From a virus, in the IMG/VR virus record IMGVR_UViG_3300047157_000171: 64,000 bases of DNA, one strand, 5' to 3'. This document shows, piece by piece, positions 4,923-7,719 of the stretch (its first letter is position 1; each line of letters starts with the position of its first letter). A program made the translations under genes and the position numbers. The notes under the pieces were generated by a model, which did no database searches, was not told where the DNA came from, and worked only from the letters and a program-made list of their open reading frames with translations.

Positions 4923-7719
4923 ATGTCTAAAATTAACGAGGGGGTTTAAAGTTGATAAGTCTGAATATAAAAAGATTTACGACGACGAAAATTATTTATT
5001 GGTTGTACCATTAACACACACGGCATCGTGTAAGTATGGTGCAAACACAAAATGGTGTACAACAAAAAGAGACGACGATAGTGATTTTGACGAACACATC
5101 ACAATGGGTGTGTTAGCATATCTAATCATTAAAAACCCAACCATTCACAATCAAATGTCTTCACAAAAATATGGACTATATAGGGGTAATGGTTATGAAC
5201 TAAAAGACTTAATAGTTTATGACGAATTAAACAATGAACACCTAAATGGTATTAAATATTTAAAAAATGAGTTTGATAAAGCAGATAGAGATTCAGACGG
5301 TATCAAAATTATTGATATTTATAATAAACACTACCAAGAAAATAGTATTGGATTTATGATGAATAGACCTGAAAAAATTAATGAAGACCTATCGATAGAG
5401 TCGATTAAACCGTTGTGTAACCGAATGGTTATTCATAAGAAGGGTGGTTTCGCAATGTTATCAAAATCGTCTATGATATACTATACGAAAGGTGGTAAGT
5501 ATGTCTCATCAGAACCCTTAAAAAACAATGGGTTAAATATCCCTTTTAGAATAGGCGATTCTATCCATGAAGTTATGAAGTGGGTTGAAGAAAACAAATA
5601 TGAAGTTAAACAATACAGTAGAACCGGTAAATCTAAAAGATTAAAAGAAGATACCGAAGAAAAGACCTACTCCCCATCACAACAAAGATTAATCGACGCC
5701 TTTAATGAAACCCCTGATTTGTATAACTTATGTTATATTGTTTTAAGTGGGTTATACGAAGATGATATGTTAGAAAAACATATCGACAATGAAGTAGAAC
5801 TAAGGTCCATTGACCTTGTTGTTGACGGACGTAAAGGTTATTTTTCCGTTGAGTTTGAAGATGATGACGATTTTTCACAATTTTTTGCCGATGGTCAGAC
5901 CGACAATTATGAGTTATGGAATGTTAGATACCGACAACCTGATTATGAATATTATTCAGATGGGGCTTGGGACGATGTTGACTCTGAAAGTTATCATATA
6001 CGAGATATTGATAATGATGACTTAAAAAAATTATATAACGTTCTTATTGAAAAAGGATTAATAGCAAAGAGAGAAAAAATTGAAGGACGCGCCGATGATT
6101 TTGAACTTGACGAGTATATCGCGGATACTTTAAAATCGATGTTTAATAAAGATGAGAGGAGACTAGCGGAAGAATACCAAGAATTCAGCACACGTTGTTA
6201 TGCTGAAGGATTTTCAAAGGAAATGGAAAAAGTACATAATGATTGGCTGGAATACGGGTTTAAAACTATCGGGTTAATAGAAAGAGATGAATTACGAGAA
6301 TACGAAATACAAGTATCAGGACTTTTTAAATATTTAATTAGACCATCACATAGGGGTTACAATATTCAAAACACAATCGAAAAGTCTAAACACTTGAGGC
6401 GTGGTGTTGGTTCGCAATCCGATTTATTTAATATGTCAGATGCCAAATACGAATATTTTGATGACTCAGAAAGAGGTCCAGCATTTACAGAATTTAAAAA
6501 GGATTGGGTGGCATCGTTAATCGATAAAATTAATGATGAGTATGAACTTGAGGTTGATGAGTTTAAGGAAGACCGTGTAAAATTACTTAAATATGGTCTC
6601 GATATTCTTAAATCCCCCGCTGCAGCTTATGATAATTATAGATATCTTTCAACATGGGACCTTCAACGTTCAACGTATGATAATCATAAATACAAAACTG
6701 CTAACGGTGAAGAGTTTATATATTTGGGGTATTCTATAGATACAGGATACCATAGAATTAGTATTGTCAATACAAATAATGATGTGGATTACGGAAGGTC
6801 ATATATAAGACAAGTCGAATCTGACGATATAATAACCTTATTAACTCAAACCAGTTTAAAATTAAAAGAATCACCTCACATAATTAAGAGAAGTTTGTTT
6901 GAACAAGACGAAGAAACAATGTCGTTATACTATGCTATGATGAGTGATTTAGTTAAATATTATGGAGAGGGTAATGTCGATTTAATTGGTTCTCCAGCCA
7001 AAATAGTTATTCGTGGTAATAACATTAGATTAAAAGGTGAAACGTTAGTCTTTACCACCAAAGGTAAAAAAGAAATAGTAAAAATAGAGGATTATTCGAC
7101 TAATCGTCAAGGTGTTGTTTACCCATCAATAAAACCTATTACCGATAGAGTTTTAAAAACCCTTCCTACAAAAAAAGAAACAAAACCAACCACTAATGAA
7201 AATTACGTAGACGGCACTAAACTAAAGGCATCTCAAAATTTTTGGAACACAATAAAAACCGATGAGGGTAGTGTAAAACAAAAAGGAGAACCCGTATTGA
7301 AAGCATATAAATTAGGTGATGGTAGAGTCACAATTGGATGGGGACACACAGGAGCACTTTCTGAACCAACCCCTAAAGTTGGTGATATAATAACTAAAGA
7401 ACAAGCGCAAAAATACTTACAGAACGATGCCACTGAATCGGCAAATTGTGTTAGACGTTTTCTAAACGAGTGGAAGTCAGATGATACTACAAAAAATAAC
7501 CATATGATTACTCAAAATATGTTTGACGTATTAGTATCGTTGGTATTTAACGCGGGTTGCCAAGGTTTAAGAAAATCTAATTTCATTAAATTAGTTAAAC
7601 AAAAAAAATATAAATCCGCTGCTAATATCTTGCCGAAAGACAGTACAATGATTAATGGTAAATTTAGTAAGGGGTTAATCTCAAGAAGACAAAGGGAATC
7701 TAAATTATTCCTTAAATAA
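4923..7719 (+). CDS. Large multidomain late protein with C-terminal GH24-like lysozyme; true start probably ATG 4923 (extra G in G5 at 4940-4944)
   Basis: N-terminal SCKYGANTKWCTT domain; C-terminal KTDEG...LKAYKLGDGRVTIGWGHT, MFDVLVSLVFNAG and GLISRRQRESKLF (lysozyme-like, with an insertion after the Glu). Confidence 0.8.

Follow-up and report, generated by a model that had tools for sequence, protein, structure and literature searches.

The window analysed here is a 64,000-nucleotide stretch of DNA from a giant T4-like marine phage that is uncultured (IMG/VR record IMGVR_UViG_3300047157_000171), and its plus-strand gene at positions 4923-7719 encodes, after correction of one surplus base, a polyprotein-like product of 931 residues: a six-residue leader and five predicted folded parts joined by four linkers, the last part being a lysozyme. 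The leader and linkers carry candidate sites for a T4 gp21-type prohead protease, which cuts after Glu in the motif [L/I]-x-E (written [LI]xE below). Residues are numbered throughout on the intact protein, P0021, encoded by the nearest virus record (G001, a 92-kb fragment with a CheckV completeness of 28%), and model confidence is given as the predicted local distance difference test score (pLDDT). The features of the gene, all on the plus strand, are:

4900-4907, plus: promoter-like octamer TATTTATA, 23 nt 5' of the ATG, from an octamer survey
4923-4940, plus: leader MSKINE (M-x-x-I-x-E), predicted propeptide ending at Glu6; start conserved as MS[KN][IL]xE in 13/13 homologs, residues 1-6 of low pLDDT
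4940-4944, plus: G run GGGGG, one base too many, which throws the leader out of frame with the rest; from alignment with G001 and sequencing-run contigs
4942-5352, plus: N-domain, residues 7-143, a mobile module with the motif PLTHxAS.KYG..TKWCT; model pLDDT 84.4
5353-5394, plus: linker 1, P-x-K-[IL]-x-E, predicted cut after Glu154 (codons 5377-5385); pLDDT <50
5395-5616, plus: D2, residues 158-231, small alpha/beta domain in the model
5617-5661, plus: linker 2, R-[LI]-x-E, predicted cut after Glu242 (codons 5641-5649); pLDDT <50
5662-6852, plus: D3, residues 247-643, large and mostly helical in the model, pLDDT mostly 80-95
6853-6915, plus: linker 3, two predicted sites, LKE649/S (6862-6870) and LFE660/Q (6895-6903); pLDDT <50
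6916-7164, plus: D4, residues 665-747, beta-rich in the model, travels with the lysozyme
7165-7206, plus: linker 4, hypervariable, contains TTNE/N (7192-7200), with no credible gp21-type site
7207-7719, plus: GH24 lysozyme domain, residues 762-931, and stop codon; PF00959 and fold match
7723-7752, plus: terminator-like hairpin directly 3' of the stop (8-pair stem with 4 G-C pairs, then the T run CTTTTTTTGT), common to this gene and the convergent one

As it stands in the window the gene is broken. The ATG at 4923 lies in a neighbouring frame that reads MSKINEGV* and stops at 4947-4949, and the long plus-strand frame, open from 4915 to the stop codon at 7717-7719, offers no ATG, GTG or TTG before 4999. 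The initial annotation had corrected this frameshift to obtain a protein beginning MSKINE, and it was right to do so, because the extra base is missing from G001 (99% identical, with GGGG at window positions 4940-4944 and an uninterrupted 931-residue open reading frame, ORF) and from the contigs of DNA runs X3 and X7 (depth 25-29) and of the metatranscriptome X15, all of which have one base fewer at 4940. The 13/13 full-length metagenome homologs (927-966 residues, 46-97% identical) likewise begin MSK[IL]xEGFKVDKSEY. The fifth G is present only in X1, a run of depth 4.8 that is possibly the window's own source. The shift reflects either a homopolymer error at low coverage or a rare variant; a programmed frameshift at the G run is ruled out, because other strains are simply in frame. 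The gene itself was found in about 14 seawater DNA runs and six metatranscriptomes.

An AlphaFold2 model of the whole protein, built from a 19-sequence alignment, has a mean pLDDT of 69.7 and resolves five folded parts, between which pLDDT falls below 50 without secondary structure: residues 1-6 (to 13 in this first model), 144-157, 232-246, 644-664 and 748-761. A second AlphaFold2 model, of residues 1-160 alone (33 sequences; pLDDT 84.4, predicted template modelling score 0.79), drops below 50 exactly at residues 1-6 and 144-160. The sites INE6/G7, INE154/D155, LKE242/D243, LKE649/S650 and LFE660/Q661 all fall in these low-confidence, structureless segments.

Column by column across 14 sequences, the linkers are variable apart from their motifs, in which P1 (the Glu) and P3 (two residues before it) are held while P2 varies freely. 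In linker 1, P149, K151 and E154 never change and position 152 alternates between L and I (14/14 sequences); in linker 2, E242 is invariant, position 240 is only L or I (14/14) and R233 is kept in 13/14; in linker 3, E660 is invariant, Q661 is kept in 13/14 and L645 in 12/14, position 658 is L, I or V, and the LKE649 motif is present in 11/14. Distant homologs of 30-40% identity keep the sites as well (RLNE/Q and LIIE/Q in P0022, LIGE/N and LSLSE/S in P0024). The intact protein contains 14 [LI]xE motifs in total, about what its composition predicts, and the overall count is thus not enriched; it is their distribution that stands out. Five of the 14 fall in the 81 linker residues (P = 0.005); among the motifs kept in at least 11/14 sequences, five of seven do (P = 9e-5); and among those kept in every homolog, three of three do (P = 7e-4). 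The placement and conservation of these motifs in the linkers are far from random, and the alignment and models together support the N-terminal site and the four internal linker sites as candidate gp21-type sites.

The initial annotation had drawn domain boundaries at KINE/D, RLKE/D, KLKE/S..SLFE/Q and TTNE/N. The first three stand, being located in linkers where the L/I and Glu belong to the few positions conserved across 14-16 homologs. TTNE/N also falls in a low-pLDDT linker between folded parts, as structure prediction places every candidate site, but it is rejected as a gp21-type site (TNE759/N760): its P3 is Thr, Glu759 is present in only 4/14 homologs, K751 is the sole invariant position of linker 4, and the linker is hypervariable between strains. 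Its codons at 7136-7190 differ at about 18 positions between the X15 RNA contig and the window, and G001 differs there too, with the flanking domains nearly identical. Given these two failings of TTNE/N, Thr at P3 and lack of conservation, lysozyme and D4 most likely remain one piece, so that some four products are predicted where five had been proposed, and the muralytic product would be D4 plus lysozyme and not the bare lysozyme.

The GH24-like lysozyme reported at the protein's end is borne out by both sequence and fold: it matches PF00959 at 2e-22 (80.3 bits against a cut-off of 22.3), solved lysozymes at 1e-13 by phmmer, GH24 lysozymes at E 1.9e-5 by Foldseek, and 145/147 residues of 9kbs_A by VIA (Z 15.5, root-mean-square deviation 2.7). 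The D-E-G and T-I-G-W-G motifs are invariant across the family. The phmmer alignment shows Leu at the place after A-Y-x where Asp is usual, with an invariant Asp two residues further on. Lysozyme activity is therefore a likely prediction. With Pfam at E up to 1, PF00959 is the only match in the protein, and no zincin-like metallopeptidase domain is found. Structure searches with the whole 931-residue model as a single query returned lysozyme matches and nothing for D2, D3 or D4. For the N-domain, the best solved structure has a GNAT-like arrangement at a non-significant Z of 4.9, and the ESM Atlas yields viral clusters without names and, at 0.87, a weak lead to PcfJ.

Does the phage encode a protease that could act on these sites? 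The claim that it has a gp21 homolog and a major capsid protein containing LINE60/A61 proved correct:

24421-25110, plus: gp21-type (S77) prohead serine protease, the proposed processing enzyme; PF03420 at 9.7e-23
26532-28271, plus: gp23-type major capsid protein with YLINE60/A61; PF07068 at 4.7e-74, BLASTP to T4 gp23 at 1e-25

The protease is 31% identical to T4 gp21 across the LNHP (His) and SSRG (Ser) motifs. By BLAST, the cut site of T4 gp23 (LTE/A) aligns loosely with GSFE/T and not with LINE60/A61, which is a candidate capsid site only. The window follows T4 gene order, with terminase, portal, S77 protease, an acidic scaffold-like protein (25213-26496) rich in [LI]xE, and the gp23-type capsid protein, whose nearest cultured relatives are proteins of Flavobacterium, Microcystis and Rhodothermus phages at 30-43% identity. 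A 503-residue ORF at 31738-33249 (minus strand) starts MSKLIFKGVVKDNKDPKSLGRIRIDP, like a gp5/VgrG-type spike; it has no Pfam match, hence no lysozyme domain was detected in it.

Relatives of the individual parts were collected by an exhaustive HMMER search of 1.84 billion representatives. D4 and the lysozyme together form a separate gene in P0025 (291 residues) and P0157 (296 residues). The two proteins start M..FIITE/SDRNHIRSLYSINE/Q and M..LIITE/EEKSHIKSLYNLKE/Q; both leaders hold a pair of [IL]xE sites (as in FIITE/S...SINE/Q) and can be aligned to LKLKE/SPHIIKRSLFE/Q, the D3-D4 linker. That linker looks like a leader retained from a gene fusion, and because it is homologous to the leader of the stand-alone D4-lysozyme genes, the polyprotein appears to have arisen by fusion of genes that each bore a cleavable leader. 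Other lysozyme relatives begin with leaders such as MKFILNE, MSRIIISE...VISE, MKIIITE and MDIIIKE...LIE. Some of the short lysozyme relatives have hydrophobic, anchor-like segments.

The N-domain occurs alone (P0084, P0132) and within many other multi-domain proteins, in one of which (P0017) it is fused to an M23 peptidase and a peptidoglycan-binding domain. Among 64 unique contexts upstream of the N-domain, a Glu stands directly before the domain in all of the roughly 50 from the close family, where our own count gives L or I at P3 in about 41, V in six and another residue in three. Leaders of the types xxIIKKILKE and KIVLTE..L.E are common to N-domain proteins and lysozymes; T4 capsid-targeting sequences likewise sit on unrelated internal proteins, as these leaders do on unrelated cargo here. 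Stand-alone D2 or D3 genes were not found in the survey, which returned only two fragments on short contigs, and otherwise D2 and D3 turned up only within the polyprotein family. The check suggested for the boundaries, whether homologs occur as stand-alone genes with the same limits, thus comes out positive for the N-domain and for D4 plus lysozyme and negative for D2 and D3.

The N-domain was found in 36 viral contigs, with three to five paralogs per related giant phage genome, and an S77 protease is encoded by 10/13 of the large viral contigs that carry it, including 3/3 of those at least 90% complete. The only cultured carrier found is Salicola phage SCTP-2 (MF360958.1, 440 kb), which also encodes an S77 protease. 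Its seven paralogs, six of them clustered, lie at 30-42 kb and 346.8 kb (loci L005-L011, N-domain core). The 12-residue start MKVKHITQYLFE/S recurs there: the five full-length paralogs listed all begin MK[VI]KHITQYLFE/S. Against cultured phages, megablast gave no match, and tblastn matched the lysozyme domain alone. No paralog of any part of the protein was detected in the 64-kb window or the 92-kb relative.

Several further features of N-domain proteins deserve mention. In the full-length SCTP-2 paralogs a helical domain follows the start, and several end in repeated 'IDNPTE..QLEAVK' units. P0091 (1844 residues) and P0151 (1534 residues), both metagenomic, contain three to five tandem units of helical domain, N-domain core and WG-repeat beta regions, which shows that the N-domain module also occurs outside short cargo proteins. 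A complete 257-kb relative has an N-domain paralog broken by six stops (three TGA, one TAG, two TAA) at G005:C1:88775-89419 (L050), about 2 kb from the genome's sole GH24 gene, whose product also begins with an ..IRKILKE leader.

On the whole we incline, by a modest degree, to the simplest reading, in which the protein is cargo packed into the head and the prohead protease cuts it into four pieces. A late multi-domain cargo protein would be recruited into the prohead, where the gp21-type serine protease would cut after Glu in [L/I]-x-E at Glu6, Glu154, Glu242 and Glu649 and/or Glu660, giving the N-domain (about 17 kDa), D2 (about 10 kDa), D3 (about 47 kDa) and D4 with the GH24 lysozyme (about 31 kDa). 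The pieces would then be ejected with the DNA, and the lysozyme would act on the wall of the new host. This last step, delivery of the lysozyme from the capsid so as to open the next host's wall, is plausible but a further and weaker one. The aspect proposed as new is a polyprotein ending in a muralytic part, divided at [LI]xE linkers that derive from leaders and cut in trans; we found no paper on prohead-protease-cut polyproteins in T4-like giant phages.

Several points weigh against this reading. Packaging, cleavage and delivery from the capsid are inferred from sequence and models, for this phage and its relatives alike. The linkers were delimited after the model was seen, and low pLDDT does not prove disorder. 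The motif is short and frequent here, at 0.018 per residue, and 15/53 window genes carry an [LI]xE within their first 14 residues against 69/145 among the relatives, an enrichment that is real but modest. The strict Glu with a hydrophobic residue two before it, which precedes even internal N-domains, could be part of the fold and not a cut site. Some 12 kb separate the gene from the head module, and it is flanked by tRNA genes on one side and by a convergent chaperone/peptidase block on the other. Only the lysozyme carries an assigned activity among the five parts, the N-domain, D2 and D3 having no assigned function, and a folded 31-kDa enzyme would need to leave through the tail and reach the periplasm.

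How else might the gene be read? Large multi-domain virion lysins are common in phages, and the product could be one of them: an uncut lysin of the baseplate, tail or portal, with its N-terminal domains as anchors and its linker motifs serving a non-proteolytic role. A separate particle-borne wall hydrolase would be sensible where the gp5-like spike has no Pfam lysozyme match, and the octamer TATTTATA upstream of the gene is common to structural genes. Yet the lysozyme is the last domain and no C-terminal beta-helix is present, searches that in effect covered just the lysozyme gave no match to the folds of hub or tail proteins, and an uncut lysin leaves unexplained both the conserved L/I and Glu of the linkers and the matching leaders of the stand-alone relatives; we consider it unlikely. 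The motif pattern might instead follow from composition and alignment, the genome being AT-rich with abundant I, L, N, K and E, in which case an ordinary multi-domain protein would never be cut. This explanation draws on the high [LI]xE background (28% of window genes have one near the N-terminus) and on the unenriched total of 14. Against it stand the far-from-random placement and conservation, the fixation of P3 and P1 while P2 varies, and the recurrence of the pattern in independent families and in SCTP-2, and we regard it as very doubtful.

It is also improbable, in our estimate, that the protein is an endolysin or lysis-stage enzyme with extra regulatory or wall-binding domains, in which any cleavage would serve to free or activate the lysozyme at a late stage of infection, in the cytoplasm and not in the prohead. 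The GH24 domain is closest to those of phage endolysins, late expression would be equally compatible with lysis, no other GH24 gene was detected in the 64-kb window or the 92-kb relative, and anchor-like segments occur, as noted, in some short lysozyme relatives. A 931-residue protein that carries four additional domains but neither a signal nor a membrane segment is nevertheless unlike known endolysins, and its leader and linker pattern fits a head-cargo logic. Its neighbours are tRNA genes, an unassigned 142-residue ORF and the peptidase/Clp/DnaK block, although no search was aimed at an adjacent holin. Nor is GH24 the universal lysin of the clade, since it is missing from two related giant genomes that are 98% and 86% complete.

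The head-cargo reading has its closest precedent in T4. According to PMC9026906, T4 gp21 cuts after L/I-X-E and removes short N-terminal propeptides from head proteins, the propeptide of Alt being very short and Alt being trimmed at its C-terminal end as well; the same source states that ten N-terminal residues of IPIII are enough to bring proteins into the T4 head. T4 Alt begins MELITE, the same M-x-x-I-x-E layout as MSKINE. Our protein resembles Alt and the internal proteins IPI-III of T4, which bear capsid-targeting sequences, undergo gp21 processing and leave the head with the DNA, in its short leader ending in L/I-x-E, its S77 protease, its T4-like head-gene order and the similar leaders on unrelated cargo (PMC9026906). 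It has, however, no sequence homology to Alt or the internal proteins, and whereas T4 cargo consists of single end-trimmed units, here folded domains would be arranged in series with internal sites and a wall hydrolase, as predicted from the sequence.

In the giant phages phiKZ, 201phi2-1 and SPN3US, a gp21-related protease cleaves numerous head proteins on the C-terminal side of Glu, and paralogous head families and redundant propeptide sites occur (PMC9026906, PMC5694885). Those proteases, by contrast, prefer S/A/G-x-E, and the propeptides often exceed 100 residues; the proteins are unrelated in sequence to ours, and lysozyme cargo does not appear in the passages of these accounts that were consulted. 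A further comparison is with the polyvalent proteins of Iyer, Burroughs, Anand, de Souza and Aravind (2017, PMC5512222), multi-domain phage proteins for which packing into the capsid and injection are predicted, with frequent lysozyme domains proposed to breach peptidoglycan at entry. There the processing is assigned to the protein's own zincin-like metallopeptidase domain, common though not universal (PMC5512222), whereas here Pfam finds none and cutting is predicted in trans at [LI]xE linkers. A polyvalent protein would also unite in one phage polypeptide, in a late or virion setting, several domains with disparate activities; ours has five domains, of which the lysozyme alone can be given an activity.

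Two muralytic proteins of other phage particles offer partial parallels. T7 gp16 is an internal core protein, a lytic transglycosylase that is ejected from the capsid and forms part of the ejection channel; like the proposed cargo, it is a muralytic domain stored in the head and released at infection, but T7 is a podovirus, the fold is different and gp16 is not known to be processed by a protease. T4 gp5 carries its GH24-type lysozyme in the baseplate hub, between an OB-fold domain and a beta-helix. A particle-borne GH24-type lysozyme for opening the wall at infection is what we propose for the polyprotein too, but its lysozyme is C-terminal (ending at residue 931) without OB-fold or beta-helix, its N-terminal parts are alpha/beta and helical, and the window has a separate gp5-like ORF at 31738-33249.

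A broader and distinctly more tentative proposal, which we put forward as a possibility and would not yet call probable, is that uncultured marine and lake giant T4-like phages use the capsid-targeting/gp21 system on a far larger scale than T4: fused polyproteins would be loaded and cut at leader-derived [LI]xE linkers, the N-domain (PLTH..KYG..TKWCT) would be a new cargo or loading module, and D4-GH24 would be a capsid-delivered wall hydrolase replacing the lysozyme absent from the gp5-like spike. If true, the leader addressing and head-protease trimming of T4 would also apply to entire polyproteins in ocean phages that are abundant and uncultured, the cell-wall enzyme of a contractile-tailed phage would come from the head and not from the tail tip, and the widespread N-domain, found three to seven times per giant phage genome, would have a role. 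With exact predicted cut sites, such a system would also be a naturally modular one for packing foreign proteins into capsids.

A late motif had been reported upstream of the gene. The octamer is indeed present at 4900-4907 and is shared with head genes; its lateness, and with it the late expression of the gene, is something we infer from the sequence. In sense orientation TATTTATA lies at most 70 nt upstream of about 17 genes, including those of the terminase (19125), portal (20959) and protease (24421) and the gene at 25213, with 23 copies against 13.2 expected (examples at 4900, 14149, 19113, 20944, 24391, 25164, 31722, 44367, 51532, 52814, 58184, 62088 and 63672). TATTTATA is the reverse complement of the T4 late promoter TATAAATA. 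The X15 RNA contig begins at 4922, one base 5' of the ATG and 14 nt past the octamer; contigs cannot reveal a transcript start, though this one may hint at a leaderless transcript.

The surroundings of the gene comprise tRNA genes upstream and a protein-quality-control block (7755-13034) of convergent or downstream neighbours:

3399-3484, minus: tRNA-Ser(TGA), upstream of the gene region
3774-3847, minus: tRNA-Thr(TGT), upstream of the gene region
7755-8804, minus: M42/M20-like peptidase, the convergent neighbour
8859-10889, minus: ClpB/ClpC-like ATPase with two AAA modules, quality-control block
11175-13034, plus: full-length Hsp70/DnaK (1.8e-251), quality-control block

Beside the capsid gene, a 542-residue ORF at 28718-30346 (minus strand) matches Peptidase_M23 at 4.3e-22 and contains 14 [LI]xE motifs against 6.6 expected; judged by its sequence, it may be a second wall-hydrolase cargo protein.

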